A stretch of DNA of 64,000 nt from an uncultured delta proteobacterium (GCA_963796055.1 CAWCKH010000003.1:714272-778271); one strand, 5' to 3'; positions 3,874 to 42,536 are shown, counted from the stretch's first letter. The notes: generated by a model from the letters alone, not told the origin. Numbers and translations: made by a program.

Positions 3874-3908
3874 CTCGAGACCTCCTGTGAAGGTGACCCT
3901 GGGACTCG

Positions 3909-3924
3909 AGCAAGGACCGCGCCA
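3909..3924 (-). promoter_or_regulatory. Putative sigma54 -24/-12 promoter for the BNR lipoprotein
   Basis: Minus strand reads TGGCGCGGTCCTTGCT (GG-N10-GC), 35 nt upstream of the start codon. Confidence 0.6.
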
Positions 3925-25525: not shown

Positions 25526-28500
25526 GAGCAGACTTCCCTTGATTCTCGCAGTCGTCGCCCTCGTCAGGTGTGGGGACACCGAGCTCCCCAGCCCCGCGCC
25601 CACGTCGGTCAGCCCCGGCCGCGGCTTCGCGGGCAACGCCACGCCGGTCGTGATCCAGGGCAACGGCTTCTCCGTCCGCACCGTCCAGTCGGCGTCGGGC
25701 GGTGCACCCACGGTGGACGAGACCTTCCAGGCATGGATGGGAGACCAGGCGCTGCTCGACGTTCACCGGGTCGACCAGCAGACGCTCACCGCCACCGTTC
25801 CGGCCGGGCTCTCCCCCGGGGTCAAGACCCTGCGCGTCCAGGGGCCGTTCGGCACCTCCGGTGAGCTTCCCAATGCCTTCACGGTCGAGGGCACTGCCCT
25901 GGCTTCGATCTCCGCCACCATCGCCGCCGCGCCGCCAACGGTCAGCATCGGCCAGGTGATCACGGTCACGGCGACGGTCACCAACACCGGGACGACCTCG
26001 GCCACCGGCGCCGCACCCACCCCTCCCACGGTGAGCGGGACTGGCGCGGCGGACCCGTCCAGCGGGCCCGATCCAGCCTCGATCGCCACGTTGGGCCCGG
26101 GTGAATCGGAAACCTTCACCTGGACCTACTCCGCCACCGGCGCGGGAACGCTCGCCTTCGCATCCTCGGTCCACGCCACCGACAGCTTCTCCGGCACCAC
26201 GATCACCGCGGTGACCGATCCGGCCAGCCCGGCGACGGTCACGGTGGTGCGCCCGGCGGCGCTGACCGCGAGCCTTCCCTCTTCCGGGGCTGCCGCGTTC
26301 GGCCGCGAGTTCACGGTCATGATGACGGTGAACAACACCGGCGGGGCGGCGGTGAAGAACCTGGTGCCGGCTGTGCCCACGGTGGCTCCGAGCGGACTTG
26401 CGGCCCTGAAGGCCGGCACCGGGCCGGTCCCGGTCTCCGTCGACTCGCTCCTCCCGGGGGCGAGCGCCACCTTCACCTGGACATTCGTGGCCGGCAACAC
26501 CCCCGGCAAGGTGCAGTTCTCCTCGAGCGCAAGCGGGAACGACGACAACTCCGGGGCGCCGGTGGCTTCCCCCGTCGCCACCTCGGGTGACTTCACCGTC
26601 GGCGCGGCGGGGCTGAACGCCTCGCTGTCCGCCGCGCCGGCGACGGCCAGCGTCGGGCAGCCCCTCACCTTGACGCTGACGGCGACCAACCCCGGGCTCG
26701 CGGACGTCCGGAACTTCGCCGTGAGCACCCCCAGCGTCGACTCCACCGATGGCGCCAACGCCGCGCTGGCCACGGGCCCCACTCCGGCGCCGCCCGCGGT
26801 GCTCGCCGCCGGACAGACCGTCAACATCGCCTGGACCTACGACCCGGCGTTGACCCCGGGCCTCTCCTCGGGGCACCTCGCCTTCGGGGTCATTGCGAGC
26901 GGCACCGACGGGTTCTCCGGCGATCCGATCACCGCGCAGCCCGCGGCGTCGTCCACCGTCCAGTCCCCGCCGACGCTGGTTGCCAGCCTCACCGCGGCGC
27001 GGACGCCACCGGTTCCCACCGGCCAGCCCTTCACCGTGAACACCGGCCAGGCATTCACCTTGAGCCTCGCGGTGAGCAACACCGGAGGGGCGTCGGCGGT
27101 GGCGGTCACCGCCACGCCGATTGCCGGGTGCGCGGCGCCCTCTCCCGCCTCGTCCACAGTCACGCCCGGGAATCCGGTGGTCTTCCTCTACGCGAGCTGC
27201 TCCTCGGCCGCGGCGGGGACGCTCACCCCCTCGGCCTCCGCGTCGGGCATGGACGCCAATAGCCCCTCGACGGCGGTGACGTCGAATCCATCGAGCGTCA
27301 CAGTGGTCGTGCAAACCCCGGCGGCGGTCACCGCCACCGTGCTGGCAACGTCGCCGTCGACTCTCAGCGTCGGGCAGGCATTCACCGTCACCCTGACCCT
27401 GACAAAGACCGGAACGGCCGCGGCCAACGTCACCGGCGTGTCGCTCACCGGCACGACCTGCGCCACCGGCCCCGCGATGCCGGTGAACGCCATCGGCGCA
27501 ACCCTGAACCTCACCTGGTCCGGGTGCACGGCGCCCGCGACCCCGCAGACGCTCACCTTGGCGGGCTCCGTGACGTGGGTGGACACCAACACCGGGACGG
27601 TCCGGACGGCAGGCCCCGTCTCGGCCTCCGTTCCGGTCGTCGCCGCCGCCTTGGTGGCCGCCACGAACATCACCACGACCCCGGCCACCCTGAGCACGGG
27701 ACAGACCTTCTCCATCACCCTGACCCTCACCAAGTCGGGCGGGGCTGCGGCGAACGTGACCGTCGCCACGACGAGCTACTCCCCGCCCTGCCTGAGCCCG
27801 CCGGCGTTCCCGATCAACAACATCGCGGCGACCCAGGCCCTCGTCTGGAGCAATTGCACCGCGCCGTCGACCGCGGGGGCCTTGGCCCTGGCCGGCTCGG
27901 CGACCTGGGAGGACGCCAACGTGCCGGGGGTCTTCAACACCACGAACCTGACGGCAACCTCGATTGTCGTGCAGCAGGCCGCCGCGCTGTCGGCCAGCTT
28001 CGCGGCCCAGCCGCCTCCCACCGCCAGCGTCGGGCAACCCCTGGCGCTCACGGTCGCGGTGTCGAACACCGCCGGCGCCGGGGGAGCGACCGCGAACAAC
28101 GTGACCGTCACCGCTTCCGTCACCGGGACGCTCGGCGCGACCGCCTCCTGCACCGGGGCCAGTCCGGGCGCCTCGTCCATCGCCGGGGGTGCGTCGCTGC
28201 CGTTCACCTTCACCTGCACCCCACTCACCACAGGCACGCTCACCTTCACCGCCACGGTGAACGGCACGGCGGCGAACAGCGGAACCGCGCTGACCGCGGC
28301 CGCCACCACATCGCCGGCGACGACGATCCAGACACCGGCGGCCCTGGCCGTGACCTTCGCCTCGCAGCCCCCGTCCCCGGTCAACGCCGGACAGGTGGTC
28401 TCCCTGACCGCGAACGTCCGCAACACCGCTGGGGCGGGCGGGGCGGCGGCGACTACGGTCTCGGTGACCCCGAGCTTCTCGACGGTGACGGGAACAGCGG

Positions 28501-29636
28501 CCGCCTCCTGCTCCACGGCCTCCCCGGCCTCCTCGACCATCGCCGCCAACTCCACCGTGCCGTTCACCTTCACCTGTACACCCTGGGGGGCGGGAACCCT
28601 CACCTTCACCGCGACCGCGAACGGCACCGCAGCAAACACCGGCAACGCGCTCACCGCTGCGGCCACCACCTCGCCGGCGACGATCGTGCTCGCCCCGGTC
28701 GTCATCGCCCCCGCGACGGCAAGCGTTCCCCCGAGGGGAGTCCTGACCTTCATCGCCAGCGGCGGAAGTGGATCTGGCTTCACCTGGTCGCTGTCCACCA
28801 ACGCCTCGGGCGGATCCGTCAACGCCAGCACCGGCGCCTACACCGCCGGCGCGACGGGGAGTGTCACCGATGTGGTCCGGGTCGTCGACTCGCTCGGCAA
28901 CGCCGCGACCCGCACCGTCGCGGTCGGACCCGGAGTCTCCATCTCCGGAGTGACGGCGGTCGCCCCTCGCGGGTCGGCGACCTTCACCGCGAGCGGCGGC
29001 AGCGGCTCGGGCTACGCCTGGTCGCTGTCCACCAACGTCTCGGGCGGGTCCATCAATGCCAGCACCGGCGTCTACACCGCCGGCGCCACACCCAACGTCA
29101 CCGACGTGGTCCGGGTCGTCGACTCGCTCGGCAACGGTGCCAACCAGAACGTGACGGTCGGGGCGGGCGTCTCCATCTCCGGAGTGACGGCGGTCGCCCC
29201 TCGCGGGTCGGCGACCTTCACCGCCAGCGGCGGCAGCGGCTCGGGCTACGCCTGGTCGCTGTCCACCAACGTGTCGGGCGGGTCCATCAATGCCAGCACC
29301 GGCGTCTACACCGCCGGCGCCACACCCAACGTCACCGACGTGGTCCGGGTCGTCGACTCCCTCGGCAACGCGGCCACCCAGAACGTGGCGGTCGGGCCTG
29401 GCGTCTCGATCAGCGGTCCGGCCACGGTCCCGGTCTCAGGCTCGGCGACCTTCACCGCCAGCGGCGGCAGCGGCTCGGGCTACACCTGGGCGCTGTCCAC
29501 CAACGCCTCGGGCGGGACCATCAATGCCAGCACCGGCGTCTACACGGCCGGCGCCACACCCAACGTCACCGACGTCGTGAGCGTCCAGGATTCCGTGGGG
29601 AATTCAGCCAGCGCCACCGTGTCGGTGACCCCCTAG
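25515..29636 (+). CDS. Large Thr/Ser/Ala-rich surface lipoprotein with IPT/TIG and multiple Ig-like repeats (1373 aa)
   Basis: Lipobox-like LVRC; SVSPGRG...VVIQGNGF IPT motif; repeated VGQ..T.T.TV.NTG modules; overlaps the upstream gene. Confidence 0.85.
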   Translation: MSTRSRLPLILAVVALVRCGDTELPSPAPTSVSPGRGFAGNATPVVIQGNGFSVRTVQSASGGAPTVDETFQAWMGDQALLDVHRVDQQTLTATVPAGLSPGVKTLRVQGPFGTSGELPNAFTVEGTALASISATIAAAPPTVSIGQVITVTATVTNTGTTSATGAAPTPPTVSGTGAADPSSGPDPASIATLGPGESETFTWTYSATGAGTLAFASSVHATDSFSGTTITAVTDPASPATVTVVRPAALTASLPSSGAAAFGREFTVMMTVNNTGGAAVKNLVPAVPTVAPSGLAALKAGTGPVPVSVDSLLPGASATFTWTFVAGNTPGKVQFSSSASGNDDNSGAPVASPVATSGDFTVGAAGLNASLSAAPATASVGQPLTLTLTATNPGLADVRNFAVSTPSVDSTDGANAALATGPTPAPPAVLAAGQTVNIAWTYDPALTPGLSSGHLAFGVIASGTDGFSGDPITAQPAASSTVQSPPTLVASLTAARTPPVPTGQPFTVNTGQAFTLSLAVSNTGGASAVAVTATPIAGCAAPSPASSTVTPGNPVVFLYASCSSAAAGTLTPSASASGMDANSPSTAVTSNPSSVTVVVQTPAAVTATVLATSPSTLSVGQAFTVTLTLTKTGTAAANVTGVSLTGTTCATGPAMPVNAIGATLNLTWSGCTAPATPQTLTLAGSVTWVDTNTGTVRTAGPVSASVPVVAAALVAATNITTTPATLSTGQTFSITLTLTKSGGAAANVTVATTSYSPPCLSPPAFPINNIAATQALVWSNCTAPSTAGALALAGSATWEDANVPGVFNTTNLTATSIVVQQAAALSASFAAQPPPTASVGQPLALTVAVSNTAGAGGATANNVTVTASVTGTLGATASCTGASPGASSIAGGASLPFTFTCTPLTTGTLTFTATVNGTAANSGTALTAAATTSPATTIQTPAALAVTFASQPPSPVNAGQVVSLTANVRNTAGAGGAAATTVSVTPSFSTVTGTAAASCSTASPASSTIAANSTVPFTFTCTPWGAGTLTFTATANGTAANTGNALTAAATTSPATIVLAPVVIAPATASVPPRGVLTFIASGGSGSGFTWSLSTNASGGSVNASTGAYTAGATGSVTDVVRVVDSLGNAATRTVAVGPGVSISGVTAVAPRGSATFTASGGSGSGYAWSLSTNVSGGSINASTGVYTAGATPNVTDVVRVVDSLGNGANQNVTVGAGVSISGVTAVAPRGSATFTASGGSGSGYAWSLSTNVSGGSINASTGVYTAGATPNVTDVVRVVDSLGNAATQNVAVGPGVSISGPATVPVSGSATFTASGGSGSGYTWALSTNASGGTINASTGVYTAGATPNVTDVVSVQDSVGNSASATVSVTP
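28700..29633 (+). repeat. Four tandem 234-bp (78-aa) intragenic repeats
   Basis: Unit ...ATFTASGGSGSGYAWSLSTNVSGGSINASTGVYTAGATPNVTDVVRVVDSLGN...; near-identical copies start at 28935 and 29169. Confidence 0.9.
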
Positions 29637-29855: not shown

Positions 29856-30626
29856 ATGCCAAGAACGCTCGATCCGATGAGGGCGATCACCGGCGCCCTC
29901 CGAGGCCTGGAAGGCGCGATGCGCGCGCTGGTGGAGGAAAACACCCATCTCAGGAAGCAGGTGCTCCTCGACGGGCGGAGCGGGAGAGGTCGGATCGCCC
30001 GCGTTGGCCGGGCTGGTGATGGAGTGCCCCGCAAGCGGGGCCGTGCCTTCAAGTTCACCGATGATCAGGCGAACGAGTTCCGCAAGCAGGTCGAGGGTGG
30101 CAAGAGCGCCGCCTCCCTGGCCAAGGAGCTGAAGGTCTCGCTCCCCACCATGTACAACACCCTCAAGCGCGCAGGCTGGAAGCCGCGCACCGGGCGCGGG
30201 CGAGGATCCGCCGGCCGCACCGTCCGGGTGTCCGACGGGGTCCCGCGCAAGCGGGGGCGGGCCTTCAAGTTCACGGCCAATCAGGCGAGCGAGTTCCGCA
30301 AGCAGGTCGAGGGTGGCAAGAGCGCCGTCTCCCTGGCCAGGGAGCTGAAGGTCTCGCTCCCCACCATGTACAACACCCTCAAGCGCGCAGGCTGGAAGCC
30401 GCGCACCGGGCGCGGACGAAACCCCACCCGGCGCGCGGCCAGGATGCGCGACGGGGCTCCGCGCAAGCGCGGGCGGGCGTTCAAGTTCACCGTGGATCAG
30501 GCGGGCGAGTTCCGCAAACAGGTCGAGGGTGGCAAGAGCGCCGCCTCCATGGCCAAGGAGCTGAAGGTCTCGCTCCCCACCATGTACAACACCCTCCGGC
30601 GCGCAGGCTGGAAGGGCCGCAGGTAG
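29856..30626 (+). CDS. Coiled-coil plus three tandem Hin-type (HTH_7-like) DNA-binding domains
   Basis: Three 72-aa units PRKRGRAFKFTxxQAxEFRKQVEGGKSAxSxAxELKVSLPTMYNTLxRAGWK; DNA period of 216 bp (30030, 30246, 30462). Confidence 0.85.
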   Translation: MPRTLDPMRAITGALRGLEGAMRALVEENTHLRKQVLLDGRSGRGRIARVGRAGDGVPRKRGRAFKFTDDQANEFRKQVEGGKSAASLAKELKVSLPTMYNTLKRAGWKPRTGRGRGSAGRTVRVSDGVPRKRGRAFKFTANQASEFRKQVEGGKSAVSLARELKVSLPTMYNTLKRAGWKPRTGRGRNPTRRAARMRDGAPRKRGRAFKFTVDQAGEFRKQVEGGKSAASMAKELKVSLPTMYNTLRRAGWKGRR

Positions 30627-30765
30627 CGCAGGGGCTGGCAGGTGGGCGACCGCCCCTGTTCTCTGGAGAACGGGGCCTCCTGGACCCGGTGATGGGTGCG
30701 GACGCACGCGTTCCTTGAAGCCGCGCCTCGACCGGTGTCTCATCGGCACCGAGGGGAGCGGGCAG

Positions 30766-31116
30766 ATGCGGCGAAGAGCGTTGCTGATGCTACCTGCGGC
30801 GGCGTTCCTGGCAGCGACGACGTTCACCACCACCACGCTCCACCCTCGCCGCTCCGAGGCAGCTCGAGACGAGATTTCACCGATTGCACCTTCACCACCG
30901 CGGTGGGCGAGAAGGACCTCCAGTGCGAAGGGCTCACCGAGACCTTTGGAGACGTCTCGGGAGATACCTTCATCCGCCTGTATTACGACTGCAGAGTTCC
31001 TTTCCTGCATCTCCACCTGCGGGTTTGTGGATGGGCAGTACGCCGGCTGCGATGGCTACCCCGGCGCGCACAAGGCAATGGGCTGCTCGACCGTGGGCTC
31101 GAACATGCCGAGGTAG
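30766..31116 (+). CDS. Small secreted Cys-containing hypothetical protein, possibly with compensating internal frameshifts
   Basis: GAGGGGAG RBS, MRRRALLMLPAAAFLAA signal and Cys-rich end. The middle reads more protein-like in another frame (DFTDCTFTTAVGEKDLQCEG). Confidence 0.4.
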   Translation: MRRRALLMLPAAAFLAATTFTTTTLHPRRSEAARDEISPIAPSPPRWARRTSSAKGSPRPLETSREIPSSACITTAEFLSCISTCGFVDGQYAGCDGYPGAHKAMGCSTVGSNMPR

Positions 31117-33267
31117 CTCGCGGGCGCGCTCCGCTCGTCCTCCGGACCGGACAGAGGCGGAGGACTCTCCGCCAGCGCTTCCGGAGACTCCGAAGAGCGG
31201 GAGACGGGGGTCGAAGCCGCGACCCTCGCTTGGGAAGCGCATCCGCGGCGATTCCGCCGCTTCCACCGGTTCACACCCGTTGGGCCAGAGTCGTAGTTCC
31301 GAGGGCTTGGCCGAGGCGGAGGAGGCCGGGCCCCTTCCATCCGCTCCATCGATTCCACCGGTTCCGCTCCCGCTTGTTTCACCGCTTGCTTCAGGGGTCC
31401 GGGGGCAAACCACCGTGCGGACCCAGGGGACCAGTCTGGACCCGAGCGAAGCCACCGCGCCCGTCACCGCCGGAGCCGCCTCCTCGGTCAGCATCTGCTT
31501 GATCTGCCGCTCCGCGAGCCTATGGATGCGGCGCATCCACCGCGAGGGCTCGAGCTTCAGCGAGGCCAGCTCCCTCGGCCGAACTACTTGCGGCTGACCG
31601 AGGAAGTCGACGTGGAGCTCCTCGGGTCGGACCGGGAGGCCAGGAGCCAGCGCCGACATCTTCTCCAGAAGGTGCCGCAGGCGATCGCGGCTGCCGAGGA
31701 GCTCGGCCCGGAGGCGGTCCAGGACCTCGCCCACGACTTCGGCCAGAACGTCACCGACCACCGCTCCGACGGGACTCTCGGCCGAGTCGGCCAACATCCG
31801 CGTGAGCTCGCCTGCCGCGCGATCGAGAGCACGAGGGGTGGCAGCCTCGAGCGCCTGGACCAGCGTGCCGCAGCGGCGCTCCGCCTCCCGGAGCACCTGC
31901 TCGGCATCCAGCGCGAGCTGCTCGAGTTCCTTCCGTCCGGCATCGCCGGAGGTGGTCGGGCCGCTGGTGATGACTGCGAGGCGGGCCTTCAACGTCGCCG
32001 CCACGCCCTGCTGGAGAGCCGCGAGCTTGCGCTCTGCCGACGTCCGGCTCAGGGTGGCCACCTGCGAGACGAGGGGGCCGACCTCCCGCTCGAACCAATC
32101 CTCGGCCAGCTGTCGCTCCGTGCCCACCGTGCTCACCAGACCGACCGGAATGTCGACGCCGAGGTGCGAGTGGAGCTGCCCGGCGAGGTAATCGCGGACA
32201 CGCTCCCGATCCGAGCCCGACAGCAGGTCGACTTTGCTCAGGGCGACCTTGACCGGAATCCCCGATTCGTACAGCAGCCGGACGATGTCCAGGTCCTCCC
32301 GTCCCGGGGCGCTCGCCCCATCGACCAGGAGGACTCCAAGGTCGCACCTGGGGAGGTAGGCATAGGAGGCGCGGGCTCCGGAGGTGGCGAGCGAGCCGAC
32401 GCCAGGAGTGTCGACCAGCGCGACGTCGCCCCGGAGTCGATGCGAAGGGACATGGGCCACCACCCGCACGACGCGCCTGGCATTGCCCGGGTTCCGCTGC
32501 TCCGAGACGTACTCCCCGAGCTGCTCGAGGCCCACCTCCATGGGCTCGCGCTCCGCGAGATGAATCTCCGCCTTCGGGACCTCGCCCAGGACGATCCGGG
32601 TGGGAACCGCGGTGACCGGGGTCACGCCCACTGGCAGGACGTTCGTGCCGAGAACGGCGTTGAGAAGGGAAGACTTGCCCGAGCTGACCCGCCCGAACAC
32701 CGCGATGTCGAACGTCTTTGTCTCGAGCCGCTCGAGGAGGGCCTCGAGCAATCCGCGGAACTCGACCAATCCCTGTTCGCGGATGACGCGCTCCAGAACC
32801 GCCACCCGCCGGACGTCAAACGGTACGCCCTCCAGGCGCTGCAGCCTGGTGCCGAGGTCCCGCCCGAGCCCCTCGACGATGTACGCGTGGAGCCGGCGGA
32901 CGATCCGGTCAAGGGCGCGCTGGATCAAGCGCTGATCCTCCTCGCTCAGCAGGCCGTACCCTCGCAGGCGAGAGGGTGAGGTCTCCTCGATGGTGATCTC
33001 CGCGAAGGTCAGCGAGGTCTGGATCGCCCAGGTTGCCGTCACCCGGGGCTTCGCGAGCTGAAGCCCCAGCCCCTGGTATGCCTCGAGCAGTCGCTCGTGG
33101 AGGCGTTCCAGATAGTCGGCCACCACCTGCTGCTGCGCGGGCTGGAGGTCCGGAGAAATCTCCGAGAACGCGGACTGCCGGGACGAGGCCGCCCGCTCGA
33201 CCTCCCGGATCAGGCGATCCAGCTGGACGAAGGTTGCGGTCAGCACGCGGCGGTGGTTGTCGTTCAA
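30970..33267 (-). CDS. Dynamin-like GTPase B; native C-terminus apparently replaced beyond about 31420 by read-through into the att region
   Basis: TTG start overlapping the upstream stop (TTGA) with GGAGG RBS; G1 GRVSSGKSS, G2 LPVGVTPVT, G3 DTPG, G4 SKVD; long helical C-terminal region. Confidence 0.85.
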   Translation of the reverse strand: MNDNHRRVLTATFVQLDRLIREVERAASSRQSAFSEISPDLQPAQQQVVADYLERLHERLLEAYQGLGLQLAKPRVTATWAIQTSLTFAEITIEETSPSRLRGYGLLSEEDQRLIQRALDRIVRRLHAYIVEGLGRDLGTRLQRLEGVPFDVRRVAVLERVIREQGLVEFRGLLEALLERLETKTFDIAVFGRVSSGKSSLLNAVLGTNVLPVGVTPVTAVPTRIVLGEVPKAEIHLAEREPMEVGLEQLGEYVSEQRNPGNARRVVRVVAHVPSHRLRGDVALVDTPGVGSLATSGARASYAYLPRCDLGVLLVDGASAPGREDLDIVRLLYESGIPVKVALSKVDLLSGSDRERVRDYLAGQLHSHLGVDIPVGLVSTVGTERQLAEDWFEREVGPLVSQVATLSRTSAERKLAALQQGVAATLKARLAVITSGPTTSGDAGRKELEQLALDAEQVLREAERRCGTLVQALEAATPRALDRAAGELTRMLADSAESPVGAVVGDVLAEVVGEVLDRLRAELLGSRDRLRHLLEKMSALAPGLPVRPEELHVDFLGQPQVVRPRELASLKLEPSRWMRRIHRLAERQIKQMLTEEAAPAVTGAVASLGSRLVPWVRTVVCPRTPEASGETSGSGTGGIDGADGRGPASSASAKPSELRLWPNGCEPVEAAESPRMRFPSEGRGFDPRLPLFGVSGSAGGESSASVRSGGRAERARELPRHVRAHGRAAHCLVRAGVAIAAGVLPIHKPAGGDAGKELCSRNTGG
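31195..31236 (-). repeat. Degenerate att core copy 1 (3' half of tRNA-Gly CCC)
   Basis: GAGCGGGAGACGGGGGTCGAAGCCGCGACCCTCGCTTGGGAA differs from the 45130/57169 copies by one substitution and one deleted base. Confidence 0.85.
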
Positions 33268-34019
33268 CCTCCACCCCCGGAGGCACGCGAAGCGCTCGGC
33301 GTGAGGTACTGCCGCGCGACGGCGACCGCACGCTCGGTCCGCAGCCGCTCGCCGCGGATCCGGCCCTCCCTCCACGACTGCGGATCCTCGAGTGCCTGAA
33401 CGAGCACCGACAGGATGCCCGGCCGTCCAGCGGCGATCTCGAGCAACAGCGCCCGATCCTCCACCCCAGGAGCTCGAGGCAGGCGCGCAGCTTCGAGCCG
33501 CCTCTCGAGCAGCGCTCGCATCTGGCGCGACCCGAGCGGCGGAACCGCAACTTCCAGATACGCAAGGCGAAGCGCCCGAACACCAGCGTGATCCCGTGCG
33601 TGCTCGACGTCCGCAGCGAGAGCGACTCCGAGCCCGGTACCTCGAAGCGAGCGCAGGTATCCCTTCAGCGCGGTCCCGGCAGCACGCACTCCGTCCAGGA
33701 GCAACGTTCCCCGCTGGCGCTCGACGGCGAGCCGAAGCAGGCCGCGCACGTGGGACTGCCGTCCCTGTGCACTCGTCGCGGGGTAGGCGCGGAGCAGGGC
33801 CTGGGTGACGTCGGAGAGGTGCTCCGTCCGGCGGGCGTACCCGCACGGACACCCGGACGCGAGGGCGCGTCGTCGGAGTTCGAGGAGCAGCGCGGTCTTT
33901 CCCACCCCCAGTGGTCCATGGAGCAGGAGCGTTTGCCCCTCCGCGACCTGCCGCTCCAGCGAGTCCAGCAGGGCCGCCCGGCCGAGAAGCCCGGCTGAAT
34001 GCGTGCCCTCGCCCATCAC
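33264..34019 (-). CDS. P-loop (AAA-like) ATPase domain protein
   Basis: LLGR...LLLHGPLGVGKT Walker A, LLLDG Walker B and AAGRPG; overlaps both neighbouring genes. Confidence 0.75.
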   Translation of the reverse strand: MMGEGTHSAGLLGRAALLDSLERQVAEGQTLLLHGPLGVGKTALLLELRRRALASGCPCGYARRTEHLSDVTQALLRAYPATSAQGRQSHVRGLLRLAVERQRGTLLLDGVRAAGTALKGYLRSLRGTGLGVALAADVEHARDHAGVRALRLAYLEVAVPPLGSRQMRALLERRLEAARLPRAPGVEDRALLLEIAAGRPGILSVLVQALEDPQSWREGRIRGERLRTERAVAVARQYLTPSASRASGGGG

Positions 34020-34498
34020 GGCCTCAAGGTCGCGGTCAGCCGCCGCGGCTCAAGCAGGAGGTCCAGTGCGTCGGTGACGCTGCCCACCACGACGTCCGCG
34101 GCGCGCAGAAGCTCAGACGAGAGCCCTTCCGGCCCGAGGACCGCGATCGCCAGCGTGGCCGAGCGCATCATCGGCACGTCGTTCCGTCCGTTCCCCACGG
34201 CCACGACACCACGCCGAGCATTGACGAACAGGCCCTTCTCGGCTCCGGTCTCCACGGTGTGGACCCGCAGGGGCAGCCCGCGAAGCGCGGCCCTCGCGCT
34301 CCCGAAGGTGTCGGCGGTCAGGACGTGGACCTCGAGCCGGCGCGAGAGCCGGACGAGTCGCTTCCGGAGGCCCGGCAGCAGCTCGCCGTCGCGCGCCAGG
34401 GTGCCGTTGAAGTCGAGGACGAGGTGCGAGAGGCGCAGTGGGGGCGCGAGCCCCAGCTCGACGGTGAGTGGCTCGACTCGATCGGCGGGCGGGACCAT
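34016..34498 (-). CDS. HAD-superfamily hydrolase, soluble P-type ATPase-like
   Basis: LVLDFNGTLA (motif I), LTADTFG, K, and VGNGRND (motif IV). Confidence 0.85.
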   Translation of the reverse strand: MVPPADRVEPLTVELGLAPPLRLSHLVLDFNGTLARDGELLPGLRKRLVRLSRRLEVHVLTADTFGSARAALRGLPLRVHTVETGAEKGLFVNARRGVVAVGNGRNDVPMMRSATLAIAVLGPEGLSSELLRAADVVVGSVTDALDLLLEPRRLTATLRP

Positions 34499-34553
34499 GA
34501 ACACTCCCGAGGGCTGCGAACTCCGGGGCCATCCCACCCGAAGCTCAGCAGCG

Positions 34554-34934
34554 TCACCCGACCTCCTCACCAGCCCTGAGCAGGAGCCTCCGGATTCCTC
34601 CCCTGGGCTCCGCGACGTCTCCCCAGCGCCGGGGGATGACGTGGAAGTGCAGATGGGAAACGGTCTGCCCCGCCGCCTCGCCGACATTGACCCCCACGGT
34701 GAACCCATCCGCCCGGTGGCGGTCCAAGATGCTGGCCCGGACCGGAACGGTCGCCTCGGCAAGCGCTCCCCGCTCCGAGTCGGACGCGTCGAACCAGGTC
34801 AGGACGTGCCGCCGGGTGATGATCAGGGCGTGCCCCGGCGCGGCGGGATGCAGGTCCCAGAGCGCGAGGACCTCCGGTCCTTCCCAGAAGACCAGCCGCG
34901 GGTCGGGCGGACAGAATGGGCAGGAGGTGCTCAT
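34554..34934 (-). CDS. HIT-family nucleotide hydrolase
   Basis: CPFC, PGHALII and [20 protein letters not shown] overlap with the eno stop. Confidence 0.92.
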
Positions 34935-36229
34935 CGGTGCTGCGGGACCCTGGGGAACGCCCGCATCCCGATGTAGCGGGCGTGGGTTCCGAGCTCTCGC
35001 TCGATGCGGAGCAGCTGGTTGTACTTCGCGAGCCGCTCTCCCCGGCACGGCGCCCCGGTCTTGATCTGCTGGGCCCCAGTGGCCACCGCGAGGTCGGCGA
35101 TGAAGTCGTCCGTCGTCTCTCCCGAGCGGTGGCTGACCACCAGCGACATCCCCGCCGAGCGAGCCACTTGCATCGTCTCCAGCGTCTCGCTCAGCGTGCC
35201 GATCTGGTTGGGCTTGATCAGCACCGAGTTGGTCACCTTCTCCTCGATGGCCCGCCGCACCCGTGTGACGTTGGTCACCAGGAGGTCGTCACCGACCAGC
35301 TGGATGCGCTCACCGAGCGCCCGGGTGAGGAGCTTCCATCCCTCCCAGTCGTCCTCGGCCAGGCCGTCCTCGATTGACCAGATCGGGAACTGGCGAACCC
35401 AGTTCTCGTAGAAGGCGACCATCTCCTCCGAGCTCCGGCGCCGCCCGTCCGACTTCCGGAACACGTAGGCGCTCCCATCGTGGAACTCGCTTGCCGCCGG
35501 GTCGAGCGCGATGCCCACGTCCTTTCCAGGCTTGTACCCGGCGCGGACGATCGACTCGAGCAGCAGCTCCACGGCCTCCTCGTTCGACTTGAGGTTGGGC
35601 GCGAACCCGCCCTCGTCGCCGACGTTGGTCCCGTACCCGCGCTGCTTCAGGAGCGCCTTCAGCGCCTGGTAGCACTCAACCGCGACCTGCATGGCGCTCT
35701 GGAAGCTGATCGCCCCGGCGGGAACGAGCATGAACTCCTGGAGGTCGACGCTGTTGTCGGCGTGGACGCCCCCGTTGAGGACGTTCAGCAGCGGGACCGG
35801 GAGCACCTCGCCGGGCGGCTCGACGATGGCCCGGTAGAGCGGCAGCCCGCGGCTTGCGGCGTTGGCCCGGGCGACCGCGAGCGAGACGCCCAGGATGGCG
35901 TTGGCTCCAAGGCGGGACTTGTTCGGCGTTCCGTCCAGCGCCAGCAGCTTGGCGTCGACCTGTCGGAAGTCTGCCGGCGCACCCGCCAGCGCGGCGGAGA
36001 TCTCTCCGTTGACGTGCCCCACCGCGAGGAGGACGCCCCGGCCGCCGTAGCGCTTCGGCTCGTGGGTGTCCCGCAGCTCGACGGCCTCGCCGCTGCCGGT
36101 GGAGGCGCCGGAAGGCACGCTCGCCCGCCCCAGGTGCCCGTCCCGCAGCTCGACGTCGACCTCCACCGTGGGATTCCCTCGGGAGTCGAGGATCTCCCGA
36201 GCGCAAACCCGTGCAATCTCCGCCGTCAT
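34931..36229 (-). CDS. eno: Enolase (phosphopyruvate hydratase), island-borne copy
   Basis: [37 protein letters not shown] and QIKTG; 432 aa from ATG 36229. Confidence 0.97.
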
Positions 36230-38007
36230 GTGACCTCCGATGCAGTCGGTGCGACGACGAGCAGTCCTGTTTGCCGGGTGAGCTCGTCGAGATGCTCCAG
36301 CTCCGTTCTGACCTGACCTGCTCCCAGCGCCTGGGCCCGGCGCGCCTCCTCCACCGCATCGCGGGAACGAGCACGCACGACGCCCAGCTTCCGGCGCAGC
36401 TCTTCCCTGAGCAGCCGGGCGCTCTCCTCGGCTCTCTCCGCGAGATCGAACTGGACGCGCGAGCTGTTGGCCTCGAGGAGGCGAAGGAAGTAGTGCCGCG
36501 CATGGCGCAGGATCGACCCCCGGCGCCAAGAGACGGGGAAGAGCTGGTCGAGGACCCACGACCACGGTGGCTCCCCGGTCAGCTGCATCAGGGAGGCGAA
36601 GCGCCTCTGGCTGGGGACCCGGAATCCGAGGTCGAGGTCCATGTCGGCCAGGCCCGGGGCCTCGAGCGCCCTGGCGGCACGGCCGAGGAATTCGCTCGCG
36701 ATGCGGGTCAGTCGCTCGGATGCGGCCCGGTGTAGCTCCTCGGCCCGAGATCCCTCCTCGCGCAGCCAACCCTCGGTGACTTCCCGGGCGGTGCTCTCGG
36801 CCAGGTCGAGACTCTGCGCGCGGACGGCATGGGGACGGCCGCCCAGGCCCGCGATTCGGCCCTGTAGCGCGGAGACACCTGCCGGCGCAGCGCTGGCCAG
36901 GAACTCCTGCCGCTGCTCCTCCAGCGCCGAGCGGAGCCGTTCCACCTCGACGCGGAAGGCGACGTCGAGCAACCGGAGCGACTGCTCCAGCCCATCCACC
37001 GCCGCGAGGAGCGCCTTCATCCGCCGCTCCGATTCCTCGAGCGGAACAGTGAGCGCCAGCCTGCGCTCCTCGAGCACCCCCAAAAGCTCACCCCGCAGTC
37101 GCATCAGGCCGCGCCAGGCGGCCCCCGAGGCCAGCCGGGTGCCCTCGTTGGCCGAGAGCTCCTCCAGGGCCGTCACCAGAGCTTTCCAGTCGCGTCCTCC
37201 GCTGCCGCCAGCGAGACGCTCCTGGGCGCTGACCTCGAAGTGGCGCGAACCATCGGGCACTCCGGCCTCGATGAGCACCGAGGTGGTGAAGGTCCGGGCC
37301 TCCTCGAGCGCGGCCGTGTCCATCCGATCCGCCTTGTTGAGGACGAAGAGGAAATGCTCCACGCGCCGGGACAGCTCGATGACCAGCTCGAGCTCGCGTG
37401 CCGCGATGGGAGGATCCCCTCCCAGGACGATGAGGGCAGCGTCCACCTGCGGCAGGAAGGCGAGCGTGGTCCGGGTGTTCTCCAGGTAGGTGGACTCGAT
37501 TCCTGGGGTATCGACCAGGCACATCCCGTGCGCGAGGATGGGAGCTGGAAGGAGCACCTCTGCCGCATCCAGCCGCTTGCGGTTGCGGGGGTTCTGCTCC
37601 TCGGTCACGTACGCGGCGAGCTCGGCGCGCGGAATCTCCTCCCAGTCGCCGCCGCCCACGCGGATCCGGATGGTCTCGCGCGGTCCATGCCGAACGACGA
37701 CGGCCGCCGAGGTCATCGGCCGGACCCCCACTGGGAGCACCGGGGTTCCGAGAAGCGCGTTGATGAGCGTCGACTTCCCTCGTTTGAACTGACCCAGGCA
37801 GGCCACGAAATACCGGCCGGCCACGGTGCGCTCGCGAAGCCGGTCCGCCTCGTCGGCGAGGTCGGCCATGCGGGCCCGCCGGCCCAGCGCAGAGAGCTGG
37901 GACAGGGAGGCAGCCACCTCCGGTTCCCCCGTCTGTTCCACCAGTGCAGTCATCGTCCGCTCCAGGACCGGAACAAGGGTGTCCTGAAGACGTCGAGCGG
38001 TGCCCAT
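36226..38007 (-). CDS. Dynamin-like GTPase A
   Basis: [29 protein letters not shown] and NKAD; helical C-terminus; GAGGAG RBS; ATGA overlap with eno. Confidence 0.9.
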
Positions 38008-38057
38008 CGCGGTCTCCTCGTGGCGTCACGCATGCCCCGCGGACGCGTCGTTGCGTT

Positions 38058-38108
38058 CGCAGGAGTCATTGGCTCGCTCCGAGCAGTTCCGGCGGACTCC
38101 ACCGCCTC
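38058..38108 (-). ncRNA. Fluoride riboswitch (crcB motif) upstream of the dynamin-eno operon
   Basis: Minus strand GAGGCGGUGGAGUCCGCC-GG-AACU-GCUCG-GAG-CGAGC-CAAUGACUCCUG: P1 GGCG/CGCC, P2 GCUCG/CGAGC, pseudoknot GGAGUC/GACUCC; about 50 nt before ATG 38007. Confidence 0.88.
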
Positions 38109-38226
38109 TGTGTCAACCTTTACATCTACGCAGTCGAGGCTGACTTCTCAAGGGGTGAGAGCAGCCCTGGGTGGACCGATGGGCCTGGCGGAGCGGCGTC
38201 GGTCCCGGTACGGTTGGTGACCAGTC

Positions 38227-38288
38227 GAGGCGGTGGAGTCCGCCATGAACCGCCGGTCGGCGTGTCCGAGCGGCCAATGACTCCTGTG
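38227..38288 (+). ncRNA. Fluoride riboswitch (crcB motif) upstream of the antiporter-DUF190-USP operon
   Basis: GAGGCGGUGGAGUCCGCC-AUG-AACC-GCCG...CGGC-CAAUGACUCCUG: P1 38229-32/38241-44, pseudoknot 38235-40/38279-84, extended P2. Confidence 0.88.
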
Positions 38289-38412
38289 AGCGTGGGGAGA
38301 CCGCAACGGTTCCCCCGGTTTCACGGGAGGCGTCCATGGCCAAGGTCCTCGAGAAGCGCAAGGCACCCACGGAAGTCAACCGCTGGCTTTCCGCACGTCG
38401 CGGTGTCTGGCC

Positions 38413-39615
38413 GTGACTCAGGTCTGGACGCTCGCCGCACTATGGCTCGGGCTGGCGCTGCTGGCCACTCTGCTCTCCATCTGGTTCCGGGTGGCGACGG
38501 CCCTGTCGGAGATCGTCGTGGGCACGGTCGCCCAGTTGGTCATCGGAGCGCTGATCGGCGGTGCGGTGCTCGGAACGGACCAGGGCTGGATCAAGTTCCT
38601 CTCCGGCACCGGGGCCATCGTCCTCACCTTCCTCGCCGGCGCAGAGCTCGATCCGGTGGTGTTCCGAGCGCGCTGGAAAGAGGCCACGCTGATCGGGGCG
38701 GTCGGGTTCTTCGCACCGTTCCTCGGCTGCGCGTTCATCGCCCACTGGGTGCTGCACTGGGGTTGGAGGCCCAGCTGGCTCGCCGGTGTCGCTCTGTCCA
38801 CGACCTCGGTGGCGGTGGTCTATGCGGTGATGCTCGAGCTCGGCCTGAACAAGACCACCTTCGGGAAGGCGGTCCTCGCGGCCTGCTTTGTCAACGACCT
38901 GGGCACGGTCATCGCCCTGGGGTTGATCTTCGCTCCGTTCGGCTCCCGGACCCTGGCCTTCGTGGGAGTGGGCATCGCGGTCTTTGCCGTGCTCCCCTGG
39001 CTCACCCCGCGCTTCTTTCGCCGCTACGGTGGGAGACCCTCCGAGCTGGAGGCGAAGTATCTCCTGTTCCTGCTGTTCGCACTGGGAGCCCTCGCGTCCT
39101 GGGCCGACAGCGAGGCCGTCCTTCCCGCCTACGTCGTGGGGATGGTCCTGGCCGGAACGGTGGGAAAGGACCACGTGCTGGTCGCCCGTCTCCGGACCCT
39201 GACCTTCGGACTGCTCACTCCGTTCTACTTCATCCGCGCCGGGTCGTTCGTCTCGGTCCCGGCGCTGCTCGCCGCCCCGCTGGTCTTCCTCGTGCTCTTC
39301 CTGGCGAAGATGGTGACCAAGACCGTCGGGGTGTTTCCGGCCACCAAGGCGGTCGGCTACCCCCGGCTGGAGGCGCGTTACACCACCCTGCTCATGTCCA
39401 CCGGTCTGACGTTCGGGAGCATCTCCGCCCTTTTCGGCCTCAATCACGGCATCATCGACCAGGCCCAGTACTCGCACCTGGTGGCGACGGTCATCATGAG
39501 CGCGGTCGCCCCGACGGTCATCGCCAATGCCTTCTTCCTCCCTAGACATCTACTCCCGAGCGCTCCACCGGCGGGCCTCGTCGCGGCTGGGCCGGCGAAG
39601 CAGGCGGAGCTCTGA
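38413..39615 (+). CDS. Cation:proton antiporter (CPA2 / Na_H_Exchanger-like)
   Basis: About 12 hydrophobic segments; FLAGAELD, LSTTSVAVV, ACFVNDL and PFYFIRAG. Confidence 0.9.
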   Translation: MTQVWTLAALWLGLALLATLLSIWFRVATALSEIVVGTVAQLVIGALIGGAVLGTDQGWIKFLSGTGAIVLTFLAGAELDPVVFRARWKEATLIGAVGFFAPFLGCAFIAHWVLHWGWRPSWLAGVALSTTSVAVVYAVMLELGLNKTTFGKAVLAACFVNDLGTVIALGLIFAPFGSRTLAFVGVGIAVFAVLPWLTPRFFRRYGGRPSELEAKYLLFLLFALGALASWADSEAVLPAYVVGMVLAGTVGKDHVLVARLRTLTFGLLTPFYFIRAGSFVSVPALLAAPLVFLVLFLAKMVTKTVGVFPATKAVGYPRLEARYTTLLMSTGLTFGSISALFGLNHGIIDQAQYSHLVATVIMSAVAPTVIANAFFLPRHLLPSAPPAGLVAAGPAKQAEL

Positions 39616-39644
39616 GATGGTGGAATGAGGAGCAGGAGGAAACC

Positions 39645-40937
39645 ATGGCGCTCGAGGGTCGAGGGAAGCGGGTGCGCATCTACGTGAACGAGGGTGCCCG
39701 GGTCGGCCACCAGTCGGCAGACATCGCGATCCTCACCTTCCTTCGTCGCGAGAACGCGGCCGGAGCCACCGTCTTCCGCGCCATCGAGGGCTTCGGCGGG
39801 CACGGCGAGATCCACACCGCGCGCCTGGTGGACGTGGCCCAGGCGCTGCCGATGGTCATCGAGTGGGTCGACTCGGAGGAGCGCGTCGAGCGCCTGCTGC
39901 CCCGGGTCAAGGAGCTCGTCCCGCGCGGGCTCATCACCGTCGATCCGACCGAGATCGTCCTTTACGAGCCCTATCCTGTTCGCCGCGTCTCGAGTCATCT
40001 GACCGCCGCCAACGTCATGTCCCACGACGTCACCGCCGTCGGGCCCCAGGTGCCGGTTCGCCAGGTCGTGGAGCTGCTTCTCGGGCGGGTCTACCGGGCC
40101 GTTCCCGTCATCGACGGAACGGTTCCGGTCGGGATCATCAGCAACTCCGACCTGGTCACCCGCGGAGGCCTCACCGTCCGGATGGAGCTGTTACCCAGCC
40201 TCGAGGGCCCCGAGCTCCACGACGTGCTCGAGCGGCTCGCCAGGCAACAGAAGACCGCCGGCGAGATCATGACCCCGCACCCGGTGACCGTGCTCGCCAC
40301 GACGCCACTCCCAGAGGTCGCGCAGATCATGGCTCGGCGCCATCTCAAGCGGCTGCCGGTGGTGGGCCCAGGGGGTGGGCTGGTCGGGATCGTCAGTCGT
40401 CTCGATCTGCTCCGCACGGTCGCCGAGGGCTTCTCGCGAAACCAGCCCGAGCCCGACCAGGTCGGGCTGAACGGCGACGCGCCGATCGGGAAGGTGATGC
40501 GTCGCGACGTCCCGACCGTCTTCCCGGAGACCTCGGTCCCGGAGGTGATGCAGGCCGTGTTCTCCACCCGGCTGAATCGCGCGGTGGTGGTGGATGCCGA
40601 GCGCCATGTCCTGGGCCTGGTCACGGACGCCGAGCTCCTGGAACGGGTCACCCCGTCGTTGAAGCCGAGCGCGCTCCAGTCACTGATGCACCGCCTGCCG
40701 CTCCTTCCTCGGCGTCAGGATGCCCGAGGAGTCGAGCAGCACGCGCTCGCCCATACTGCCCGGGAGCTGATGGTGCGGGCAATCCCGACTGCGGAGGAGA
40801 GCACCCCGCTCCGCCAGGCGCTCCGCTCCATGCTCGAAGGCAAGGAGAAGCTCATTGCAGTCGTCGACGGTCAGCGCAAGCTGGTGGGCGTCGTCGACCG
40901 CGCGGACATTCTCCGGGGTCTGGCGGCGCCCGGATAG
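39645..40937 (+). CDS. DUF190 (PII-like) domain fused to four CBS domains
   Basis: RVRIYVNE...AGATVFRAIEGFG...LPMVIEWVD, followed by two CBS pairs (VGIISNSDL, LVGIVSRLDL, LGLVTDAEL, VGVVDRADI). Confidence 0.88.
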   Translation: MALEGRGKRVRIYVNEGARVGHQSADIAILTFLRRENAAGATVFRAIEGFGGHGEIHTARLVDVAQALPMVIEWVDSEERVERLLPRVKELVPRGLITVDPTEIVLYEPYPVRRVSSHLTAANVMSHDVTAVGPQVPVRQVVELLLGRVYRAVPVIDGTVPVGIISNSDLVTRGGLTVRMELLPSLEGPELHDVLERLARQQKTAGEIMTPHPVTVLATTPLPEVAQIMARRHLKRLPVVGPGGGLVGIVSRLDLLRTVAEGFSRNQPEPDQVGLNGDAPIGKVMRRDVPTVFPETSVPEVMQAVFSTRLNRAVVVDAERHVLGLVTDAELLERVTPSLKPSALQSLMHRLPLLPRRQDARGVEQHALAHTARELMVRAIPTAEESTPLRQALRSMLEGKEKLIAVVDGQRKLVGVVDRADILRGLAAPG

Positions 40938-40946
40938 GAGAGACCC

Positions 40947-41372
40947 ATGTTCTCCAGGATCCTCGTGGGGGTCGACGGCTCGTCCCCGAGTCAGCGCGCC
41001 TTCGCGGTCGCGCTCGACCTGGCAAAGCACTACCGCGCCCCGCTCCACGTCTGCTCGGTCATCGAAGACGTGCCTAAATATGACGGCGAGTCGATCGCCG
41101 ACGTCGACGAGGCGGTGGAGCGAGCGCAGAAGGCGTTCGATCGGGTCTACGAATCACTCGCCGGGGAGGCCAAGCGCGAGAAGGTCAAGCTCGTCCGCCA
41201 CGTGATGCCCGGTCACCCAGTGGAGGTCCTCGTACACCTGGCCGAGCAGGAGGGCATCGAGTGCATCGTCCTCGGGGGGCTGGGCCACTCGCGCGTCCTG
41301 CGACGGGCTGCCGGGGGGATGGGAACGCAGGTCGCTTACCACGCACACTGCTCCGTGCTCATCGTGCGCTGA
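40947..41372 (+). CDS. Universal stress protein
   Basis: MFSRILVGVDGS...GHP...IVLG...HAHCSVLIVR. Confidence 0.92.
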   Translation: MFSRILVGVDGSSPSQRAFAVALDLAKHYRAPLHVCSVIEDVPKYDGESIADVDEAVERAQKAFDRVYESLAGEAKREKVKLVRHVMPGHPVEVLVHLAEQEGIECIVLGGLGHSRVLRRAAGGMGTQVAYHAHCSVLIVR

Positions 41373-41404
41373 GACCCGCCGGCCGCCCTTGCAGGGGCAG
41401 TGCT

Positions 41405-41475
41405 CTACCCTCGATCGGGACTTCCTGGCACACTTGCCGAACCGCGTCTGGAGCACCGACATCACCTACGTCGCT
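41405..41475 (+). pseudogene. Tiny IS3-family transposase remnant
   Basis: TLDRDFLAHLPNRVWSTDITYV matches the start of the IS3 integrase core domain. Confidence 0.65.
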
Positions 41476-41549
41476 GGCCCTCCGCGTTCCTGCCGCGGGC
41501 CTGGTCCACCACTCCGACCGGGGAAGCTCAGGATCGCCAAGGGACTTTC

Positions 41550-41993
41550 CTACTGGAGGACGGCCCGCATGGCGACGGCGCTCCTGGGGCACGCTCCATG
41601 CAGCTCCTCGGAGGCGTTCAGGACCTCCGGTAACTCCTCGCGTCGAGCCACGGTGAAGCCGAACCGAGGAAACCAGTCGGGCGCAGTGGTCGTCAGGAGA
41701 AAGACGTCGCGGACGCCACCTTCGCGAGCCCGCTCCAGGAGCGCTCGGACCAGAGCGGTTCCGAGCCCGTTGCCCGCCAAGTTGTCGGCGACTGCCACCG
41801 ACCGGAGCAGCCCAACGTTCCCGTAGCGCTCGAGTCCGGCAACTCCGAGCACCGCCCCGTTCGTCTCGCTCGTTGCCACGATGAAATCCGGGAGATGAAT
41901 GTCCGCGCCCTCGGTCGGCAGATGACGTGCCTCAAGCAACGCCCGGATCCTGGGCCAGTCGCTCGCGCGTGCCAGGCGGATGGACGGGGTCAC
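41550..41993 (-). CDS. arsN2: Arsenic-resistance GNAT acetyltransferase (ArsN2-like)
   Basis: GLLRSVAV...GNGLG...FLLTTTAPDWF...CPRSAVAM; last gene of the ars operon. Confidence 0.8.
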   Translation of the reverse strand: MTPSIRLARASDWPRIRALLEARHLPTEGADIHLPDFIVATSETNGAVLGVAGLERYGNVGLLRSVAVADNLAGNGLGTALVRALLERAREGGVRDVFLLTTTAPDWFPRFGFTVARREELPEVLNASEELHGACPRSAVAMRAVLQ

Positions 41994-42511: not shown

Positions 42512-42536
42512 GCGACGGCTCCTGGGGTACCGAGGG

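Follow-up and report, generated by a model that had tools for sequence, protein, structure and literature searches.

Dynamin-like GTPase genes behind fluoride riboswitches: a probable fluoride-stress operon in an uncultured delta proteobacterium and related loci in other bacteria

Bacterial dynamin-like proteins are widespread, and few of them have a known trigger or role. In a 64,000-nt stretch of the genome of an uncultured delta proteobacterium (GCA_963796055.1, CAWCKH010000003.1:714272-778271; the whole of this stretch is called the window below), two genes for such GTPases, dlpA and dlpB, lie on the minus strand behind an RF01734 aptamer, together with genes for an enolase, a HIT-family protein, a small HAD-like protein, and a small AAA+ ATPase. 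The ligand of the RF01734 aptamer is fluoride. What do dynamins do behind a switch for fluoride, and is their place there a peculiarity of this genome? Our analysis indicates that the module of dynamins and ATPase very probably belongs to the fluoride regulon as a genuine and conserved part. The minus-strand unit of the window is probably a fluoride-riboswitch stress operon, in which a heterotypic dynamin pair and the ATPase form the core and the second enolase, the HIT protein, and the HAD-like protein are additions.

The initial annotation of the window had placed a crcB-class aptamer about 50 nt upstream of a single minus-strand operon of six genes. The search with RF01734 gave a significant match at this position, above the gathering threshold, and the 3' end of the aptamer was located 45 nt before the ATG of dlpA (38007) on the same strand. 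In the cmscan alignment, P1 and P2 were paired and the GGAGU/ACUCC pseudoknot strands were present; the P1/P2 and pseudoknot-strand columns were invariant among 59 aligned aptamers. The minus-strand unit was thus retained, and a second, plus-strand aptamer, which had been overlooked, was found to head the antiporter, DUF190-CBS, and universal stress protein (USP) genes. As read from its sequence, the locus is a divergent pair of predicted fluoride-controlled operons, not one operon. These two aptamers were the only RF01734 matches in the whole 5.53-Mb genome.

Relatives of dlpA numbered at least 1697 among 8000 scored candidates; most were unnamed or labeled 'dynamin family protein' or 'EngB', the last of which is misleading for this subfamily. 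With a profile of 30 dlpA relatives (A1), at least 586 loci were found in species-representative genomes, and the best 80 of them were kept with 10-kb flanks (1.56 Mb); all counts per 80 given below refer to these loci. They came from eight phyla, mostly from Acidobacteriota and also from Myxococcota, Gemmatimonadota, Verrucomicrobiota, Methylomirabilota, Binatota, Rokuibacteriota, and, in one case, Burkholderiales. A covariance model (R1) was built from the 59 aligned aptamers (61 distinct ones were found by a simple pattern) and used at E <=0.01. It detected 116 aptamers over the 80 loci, including Acidobacteriaceae variants with a long P2 insert that the simple pattern had missed. At least one aptamer was present in 72 loci, and a same-strand aptamer lay upstream of the dynamin in 70, in none of which did a labeled gene on the opposite strand stand between the aptamer and dlpA. 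Because the sequences used to train R1 are bound to match it, other R1 hits were rechecked with the Rfam model, which passed all 7 of the mid-scoring Acidobacteriaceae hits missed by the pattern and 4 of the 7 weakest hits checked.

Neighboring genes were labeled by comparing six-frame open reading frames with profiles made from locus sequences, after identification of the seeds with Pfam. The first labeled gene behind the nearest upstream aptamer was dlpB in 22, dlpA in 17, an antiporter in 13, CrcB in 7, DUF190 in 2, enolase in 2, and the ATPase in 1 of the 80 loci; in 6 the first gene was unlabeled, three of these being antiporters according to tblastn, and 10 had no upstream aptamer. A dynamin, either dlpA or dlpB, was therefore the first gene in 39 loci.

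The linkage was also found in an independent set of 151 evenly drawn genomes of Acidobacteriota, the phylum of locus L017, which was searched with the Rfam RF01734 model alone and with A1 at E <=1e-20. RF01734 was detected in 49 genomes (76 sites) and the dlpA profile in 27 genomes (32 sites); 25 genomes had both, 2 had the dynamin only, 24 had the riboswitch only, and 100 had neither. For 29 of the 32 dynamin sites, an RF01734 site lay upstream on the same strand, at a distance of 36 to 5193 nt. Given at most 5 sites per genome and a smallest listed genome of 1.9 Mb, we estimate the chance that a site falls in the 5.2 kb upstream of any one gene at less than about 0.7%. As to the three unlinked sites, G124 has no riboswitch in its genome, the riboswitches of G118 lie on another contig, and the gene of G179 begins at base 3 of its contig. 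Dynamins are linked in 24 of the 49 riboswitch-bearing genomes, which ranks them among the more frequent constituents of the fluoride regulon in this phylum. The enrichment of dynamin homologues behind fluoride riboswitches that the initial annotation had raised was thus borne out by both sets.

In a scan of five carrier genomes, the sole riboswitch of the genome preceded the dynamin operon in G063 and G065, all five riboswitches of G061 lay in one 15-kb island around the dynamins, one of three was located at the dynamin in G062, and the only site of G064 (locus L039), which lay elsewhere, was sub-threshold. Within the window's own order, linkage was seen for the close homologues from G010, G052, and G040, G028 had no aptamer in its 8.8-kb contig, and three distant dynamin-like matches (L097-L099) were unlinked. 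Five or six aptamers were clustered within about 20 kb in L016 (5), L093 (6), L065 (5), and G061 (contig C28, 71278-85964; 5), and these clusters often contained divergent pairs of the type seen in the window.

A FastTree phylogeny of 81 dlpA proteins required at least 33 changes of the gene-architecture label, compared with a possible minimum of 7 and a mean of 47.5 after shuffling; loci without linkage were scattered over the tree. Gene order has been reshuffled many times with riboswitch control kept, which argues for selection on co-regulation and not for one inherited accident. The recurrence of this linkage in many soil bacteria points to an as yet unreported role of bacterial dynamins in coping with fluoride.

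The features of the locus are listed in Table 1. The gene order and the Pfam and TIGR matches were in agreement with the annotated six-gene unit, with the qualification that the HAD-like and ATPase assignments fall below their family cut-offs. The ATPase has orthologues that pass the AAA_16 cut-off (L017, 41.0 bits; L036, 37.6 bits), its Walker A motif G-x-x-G-x-G-K was invariant in the 40-row alignment A4, and in the Atlas search it fell into generic AAA_22/AAA_16 clusters without a name. Motif I of HAD proteins is DxDxT; in the HAD-like protein the stretch is D-F-N-G-T, in which Asn takes the place of the second Asp, and G-N-G-R-N-D follows later. This protein gave weak matches to HAD-domain models of P-type ATPases, and it has orthologues in L016 and L040, the latter reaching 24.2 bits with Hydrolase_3. 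None of the NCBIfam models was specific to dlpA, dlpB, or the ATPase.

Table 1. Aptamers, leader, and genes of the two divergent operons, with the crcB gene of the same genome
Feature	Coordinates	Strand	Details
RF01734 fluoride riboswitch aptamer heading the dynamin operon	38053-38115	minus	42.2 bits, gathering threshold 34, E 2.5e-08, model 1-64/64
Leader/expression platform	38008-38052	minus	Shine-Dalgarno GAGGAG at 38014-38019, 6 nt before dlpA ATG
dlpA, dynamin-like GTPase	36226-38007	minus	593 aa; Dynamin_N 82.7 bits (cut-off 27)
Enolase, second copy	34931-36229	minus	432 aa; TIGR01060 600.8 bits (cut-off 300), Enolase_C 388.7, Enolase_N 171.9
HIT-family nucleotide hydrolase/transferase	34554-34934	minus	126 aa; Pfam HIT 79.3 bits (cut-off 21.5); histidine triad HLHFHVI
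Small HAD-like protein, soluble P-type-ATPase-like kind	34016-34498	minus	about 160 aa; Hydrolase_3 16.7 bits, below cut-off 20.9
Small AAA+ (AAA_16/AAA_22-like) P-loop ATPase	33264-34019	minus	251 aa; AAA_16 25.5 bits, below cut-off 32.6
dlpB, dynamin-like GTPase	30970-33267	minus	765 aa; Dynamin_N 81.1 bits (cut-off 27); conserved part 31408-33267
Second, divergent RF01734 aptamer	38220-38293	plus	39.0 bits, E 2.9e-07, full model
Na+/H+ exchanger family antiporter	38413-39615	plus	400 aa; Na_H_Exchanger 129.7 bits
DUF190 (PII-like) fused to four CBS domains	39645-40937	plus	430 aa; DUF190 109 bits, CBS 147.8 bits in 4 stretches
Universal stress protein	40947-41372	plus	141 aa; Pfam Usp 95 bits
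Single crcB of the genome	G000:C4:358581-358919 (L003)		other contig; no RF01734 match nearby

The AF2 model of dlpA (pLDDT 84.4) consists of a GTPase domain followed by helices at residues 274-386, 392-448, and 492-581, with a conserved non-helical tip at about 455-482 that bears Trp, Phe, and Leu. Its top Foldseek matches were IniA (6j72), BDLP (2j69), a Campylobacter DLP (5owv_C, TM 0.45), SynDLP, and mitofusins, with a probability of 1.00. The model of dlpB (pLDDT 69.7, falling below 50 after residue 623) is extended at the N-terminus by about 185 helical residues and folds like the same set of structures (IniA, BDLP, 5owv_A, SynDLP, and mitofusin; Foldseek probability 1.00). By sequence, the closest solved chains to dlpA and dlpB were 5owv_C and 5owv_A, BDLP, and IniA; the two proteins are 28% identical to each other over 281 residues. 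The G motifs of dynamins are GxxxxGKS/T (G1), DxxG (G3), and N/S-K-x-D (G4). In alignment A1, G72-K78-S79, D166-T-P-G169, K225, and D227 of dlpA, the last two within an NKAD motif, were invariant, and so were G192..G197-K198-S199, D286-T-P-G289, S344-K345, and D347 of dlpB in alignment A3 (21 orthologues). With the P-loop, DTPG, and (N/S)KxD motifs invariant in both families, dlpA and dlpB look catalytically competent. A complex prediction for dlpA and the ATPase from alignments A1 and A4 (score 0.00, mark 0.32) was uninformative either way.

From these observations we propose the following course of events. A complex of Mg and fluoride would fold the minus-strand aptamer, and this folding would free the GAGGAG sequence before the dlpA start and turn translation on. 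In the unconstrained minimum-energy fold, GAGGAG pairs with nt 30-35 of the aptamer, and it becomes free once the aptamer nucleotides are barred from pairing. No terminator-like site was found in the window leader, and we infer from the folding model that this leader is a translational ON switch. Among leaders of relatives read by eye, seven (L033, L034, L035, L043, L060, L065, and L089) had, just behind the aptamer, a hairpin that overlapped the aptamer 3' CUCCU strand and preceded a U-run, with dlpA as the first gene in four of them (L035, L043, L065, and L089); in L018, L030, and L062, the complementary G-AGGAG also serves as the ribosome-binding site. All six genes would be expressed from one transcript. 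The cytoplasmic dynamins, probably aided by the ATPase, would then bind the inner side of the cell membrane and tether, reseal, or reshape it under conditions in which HF influx, acidification, and poisoning of phosphoryl transfer stress the envelope; this action is suggested by the fold family and the neighboring genes. The extra enolase would offset the inhibition of glycolysis by fluoride, which is a known theme.

That the job of the module is membrane maintenance or remodeling is a plausible reading of fold and family, which we hold tentatively. It is favored because solved relatives act in this way (DynA, IniA, and DLP1/2) and because a cyclopropane-fatty-acid synthase gene (CMAS, about 300 bits), seen in 3 of the 80 loci, sits directly behind an aptamer of its own in L017 (325-1657) and L066 (11571-12873); this arrangement hints at membrane adaptation. 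It is favored further because lysis of bacteria triggered by fluoride is reported in the accessible part of PMC12700350. In L017, the synthase gene is followed by genes for a HEAT-repeat protein and a third dynamin (2944-4683).

Several observations weigh against the interpretation given above or limit it. No upstream aptamer was found in 10 of the 80 loci (L026, L039, L045, L056, L059, L071, L077, L079, L082, and L088); in L079 and L082 aptamers occur elsewhere in the locus only, the other eight have none, and the L059 sequence ends about 0.8 kb upstream. The hits in L038, L076, and L078 were sub-threshold with the Rfam model, so that a conservative count of the linkage is 67 of 80. In the independent set, the association of dynamin and riboswitch gave an odds ratio of 52 and a Fisher p of 6e-13, which is overstated since related genomes are not independent, and both the 49 of 151 riboswitch-bearing genomes and the 24 with the riboswitch only include G089, flagged as unpublished (48 of 150 and 23 without it). 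In the window's own order, the family was present in 8 of 61 genomes and missing from 53; this patchiness marks it as accessory there. The predicted leader fold was no better than that of shuffled sequences (z -1.55), which makes the model of Shine-Dalgarno release weak. Neither dlpA nor dlpB has a hydrophobic or transmembrane-like segment (the 19-residue Kyte-Doolittle maximum of dlpA is 1.36), and the tip seen in the model is a putative membrane-binding one.

The C-terminal part of dlpB in the window belongs among these points as well. The initial annotation had ended the operon at 31420, where there is no stop codon; the reading frame of dlpB continues to 30970, and homology to the 77% identical relative L016 ends at 31408. 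The last 146 or so codons (30970-31408) are non-homologous and modeled with pLDDT <50. Compared with L016, the window sequence contains extra bases near 31400, five consecutive C among them, and the C-terminal helix of the family (L-K..Q.G.A-E-P in L016) can be read only in another frame. The window dlpB, lacking this helix in frame, may thus be impaired or mis-assembled, and the tail reflects either an assembly indel or a real frameshift. Contigs from four DNA runs over 30800-33400 were short, and the listed pieces do not bridge 31328-31477; the best of these runs may be the source sample.

The genes around the dynamins in the 80 loci bear on what the module is for. DUF190 genes were present in 46, dlpB in 45, the AAA ATPase in 42, CrcB in 38, a Na+/H+ antiporter in 24, enolase in 22, USP in 15, a HEAT-repeat protein in 13, a Cys-rich 201-aa protein in 12, MutS_V-type proteins in 11, HIT in 4, pyrophosphatase in 3, and HAD in 2. 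The conserved core consists of dlpB, dlpA, and the AAA_16-like ATPase, and CrcB and DUF190 usually go with it; the heterotypic pair is kept in the 45 loci in which dlpB accompanies dlpA. By the same reading, the enolase of the window is a common addition and HIT and HAD are rare, lineage-specific ones, so that the conserved enolase, HIT, and HAD neighborhood of the initial annotation held for enolase only. The commonest order in Acidobacteriota was aptamer, dlpB, CrcB, (201-aa protein), DUF190-DUF190, DUF190, ATPase, and dlpA, with genes abutting or overlapping.

Two kinds of neighbor in these loci deserve mention in their own right. The 201-aa protein is soluble and has several C-x-x-C pairs; it is encoded between CrcB and DUF190, for example, in L075 (3449-4054), L017 (7396-8001), and L093 (8274-8888), and it had no match in Pfam, NCBIfam, or PADLOC. 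Pairs of genes for MutS_V-domain proteins directly follow dlpA in L065 (11662-14807) and L089 (7527-10615); mutS-like genes beside the crcB motif were already noted in the 2010 discovery paper.

The frequency of CrcB and DUF190 in these loci and the tight packing of the commonest order would also suit a different function, in which the dynamins and the ATPase are accessories of export that insert, cluster, or turn over CrcB (Fluc) and DUF190 proteins, or shed vesicles containing fluoride-damaged material. However, the dynamin operon of the window has no CrcB gene, the one crcB of this genome lies apart from any riboswitch, and no channel gene intervenes in the 17 loci in which dlpA stands directly behind the aptamer. 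We therefore regard an accessory role in export as unlikely, and membrane maintenance remains the function that we prefer for the module.

Metal-fluoride complexes mimic the gamma-phosphate in GTPases. The operon could accordingly compensate for poisoned nucleoside triphosphatases, if the dynamins and the ATPase are fluoride-sensitive and more, or resistant, copies of them are made as fluoride rises. Dynamin-family GTPases trapped with GDP-AlFx are among the fold matches (8eew), and the regulon is rich in phosphoryl-transfer enzymes inhibited by fluoride, such as the enolase and pyrophosphatase counted above (PMC11139923, accessible text). The enolase of the operon itself fits such a backup role, as the initial annotation had supposed: another enolase of the genome (C3:201957) is 58% identical to it and has a higher family score, which identifies the operon enolase as the extra copy. 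In contrast to this housekeeping enolase, the genome contains no other full dynamin gene to back up, dlpA and dlpB being its only full Dynamin_N genes, and a protein produced solely in response to fluoride is no spare for a constitutive one. Compensation for poisoned enzymes is thus improbable as an account of the dynamins.

The same chemistry allows a bolder version of the membrane-maintenance reading, in which dlpB, the ATPase, and dlpA form a dedicated membrane machine for fluoride stress on which fluoride acts twice, via the riboswitch and directly on the proteins. GDP with Mg- or Al-fluoride would lock the dimer of GTPase domains, so that the toxic ion itself triggers tethering or resealing; a GTPase dimer locked by GDP and metal fluoride is the state used to trap dynamins in vitro. 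We consider such a double action rather unlikely. If it were true, a bacterial dynamin would for the first time have a physiological trigger defined by its ligand, and envelope damage would be a main route of fluoride toxicity in acid-soil bacteria.

Whether the aptamer governs all six genes depends on the junctions between them. Stop and start codons overlap at four of the five junctions, as previously annotated: ATGA at dlpA/enolase, ATGA at enolase/HIT, GTGA at HAD/ATPase, and TTGA at ATPase/dlpB. The start of the HAD-like gene is uncertain (34498, 34504, or 34570), and HIT and HAD are accordingly separated by a 55-nt gap or overlap by 17 nt. In a weak test, no terminator-like sites were found inside the operon on the minus strand, and a sigma-70 promoter scan of 30500-41800, with a model that is uninformative for the source organism, gave no match. 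From the overlap at four junctions and the absence of terminator-like sites, we infer that the six genes probably share one transcript. The possible 55-nt gap would leave room for control of the first gene or genes only, with HAD, ATPase, and dlpB under a promoter of their own and the module partly an accident of order, and in L016 an extra aptamer stands in place of the HIT gene, at the HIT/HAD position, so that the locus can split into two units. However, the HAD-ATPase-dlpB unit of L016 has its own fluoride switch by virtue of that aptamer and stays in the regulon, dlpB is the first gene behind the aptamer in more loci than any other gene, and the weak test of the operon interior revealed neither a promoter-like nor a terminator-like site; partial control is quite improbable. 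An anti-phage defense island of the 'Dynamins' type (LeoA/LeoBC-like) that merely lies near fluoride genes is highly improbable, as the weak PADLOC matches that suggest it (dlpA to LeoA, 47.9 bits, and LeoBC, 29.9 bits; HIT to the Thoeris HIT-family model, 43 bits) are, for the dynamins, only at the general family level, the same-strand aptamer linkage in both locus sets is unexpected for a defense island, and the neighbors are ion-homeostasis genes, not defense genes.

Outside the two operons, the window contains a plus-strand gene (29856-30626) convergent with the end of dlpB, which encodes a 256-aa protein with three tandem helix-turn-helix (HTH) units of about 85 aa (many weak HTH matches in Pfam) and is followed by a terminator-like hairpin (30641-30654). 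Another plus-strand gene (25515-29636) encodes a 1373-aa Ala/Thr/Ser-rich protein whose N-terminus resembles a signal peptide and whose sequence contains many internal repeats. On the other side, minus-strand genes at 41550-43688 encode a GNAT acetyltransferase, an ArsC-like LMWPc phosphatase (47.5 bits), and an SBF/ACR3-type transporter (175.3 bits). They resemble an arsenic-resistance set, and the region may therefore be a general toxic-ion island.

Published lists of the fluoride regulon, in the consulted portions of reviews and in the discovery paper, name only exporters, antiporters, enolase, pyrophosphatase, HAD, MutS-like, and formate-hydrogen-lyase genes. There was no mention of dynamin or GTPase in the accessible text of the 2024 review of fluoride resistance (PMC11139923) or in the text and 8 supplements of the 2010 discovery paper, and none of dynamin in the available part of the 2020 review of orphan riboswitches. 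Judged by title and the opening of the abstract, papers that touch on both bacterial dynamins and fluoride deal with the structure and cell biology of dynamins or mitofusins and not with riboswitches. No prior report of dynamins in a fluoride-riboswitch regulon was found in the literature searched, which did not cover the gene catalogue of Baker et al. 2012. What is new here is a widely conserved and unreported class of effectors, the dynamins; the fluoride-riboswitch resistance operon as such is a known kind. Through this linkage, a whole subfamily of bacterial dynamins is tied to one chemical signal, with an AAA ATPase as a previously unremarked partner. It suggests an envelope component of fluoride toxicity outside the current picture of export and metabolism, and the role of the dynamins is directly testable by the addition of NaF.

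Among known systems, the FRM operon of Enterobacter cloacae (riboswitch-ppaC-uspA-eno-gpmA-crcB-orf5249; PMC5533749, accessible part) resembles the window locus in being a multi-gene operon headed by RF01734, in which a second enolase and a stress protein accompany other fluoride-response genes, and it is part of an accessory genomic island. It differs in that it has no dynamin, AAA ATPase, HIT, or HAD gene as described there, contains the exporter inside the operon, and was tested experimentally, whereas the window locus is known from sequence. As for the dynamins themselves, DLP1/DLP2 of Campylobacter jejuni (5owv/5oxf) were among the top three solved sequence matches (E 5e-23 for dlpA and 2.8e-22 for dlpB), and the highest TM-score of dlpA was that with 5owv_C. 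They too are encoded by two paralogous genes side by side, the longer product being extended at its N-terminus (732 and 614 aa in 5owv; 765 and 593 aa in the window), but identity in structural alignments was 13-15%. We know of no riboswitch or fluoride link for the Campylobacter pair.

The mycobacterial iniBAC operon is induced by cell-envelope drugs, and IniA has membrane-fission activity. IniA/IniC (6j72/6j73) gave the top Foldseek match (E 1.4e-18 for dlpA and 2.8e-14 for dlpB; identity 16-19%), and the concept of two dynamins induced by chemical stress is common to iniBAC and to the operon proposed here; iniBAC, however, responds to another inducer through a protein regulator, not a riboswitch, and has no AAA ATPase, CrcB, or DUF190 neighbors. 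BDLP of Nostoc (2j68/2j69) and DynA of Bacillus subtilis belong to the same fold class, with a GTPase domain and a long helical neck and trunk, and the NCBIfam model of DynA matched weakly (42.9 and 48.2 bits; cut-off, 1600). DynA, which acts in membrane repair, is a fused double dynamin, whereas the window has two separate genes and an ATPase. The functional reading that we suggest for dlpA and dlpB is modeled by analogy on the membrane repair performed by DynA.

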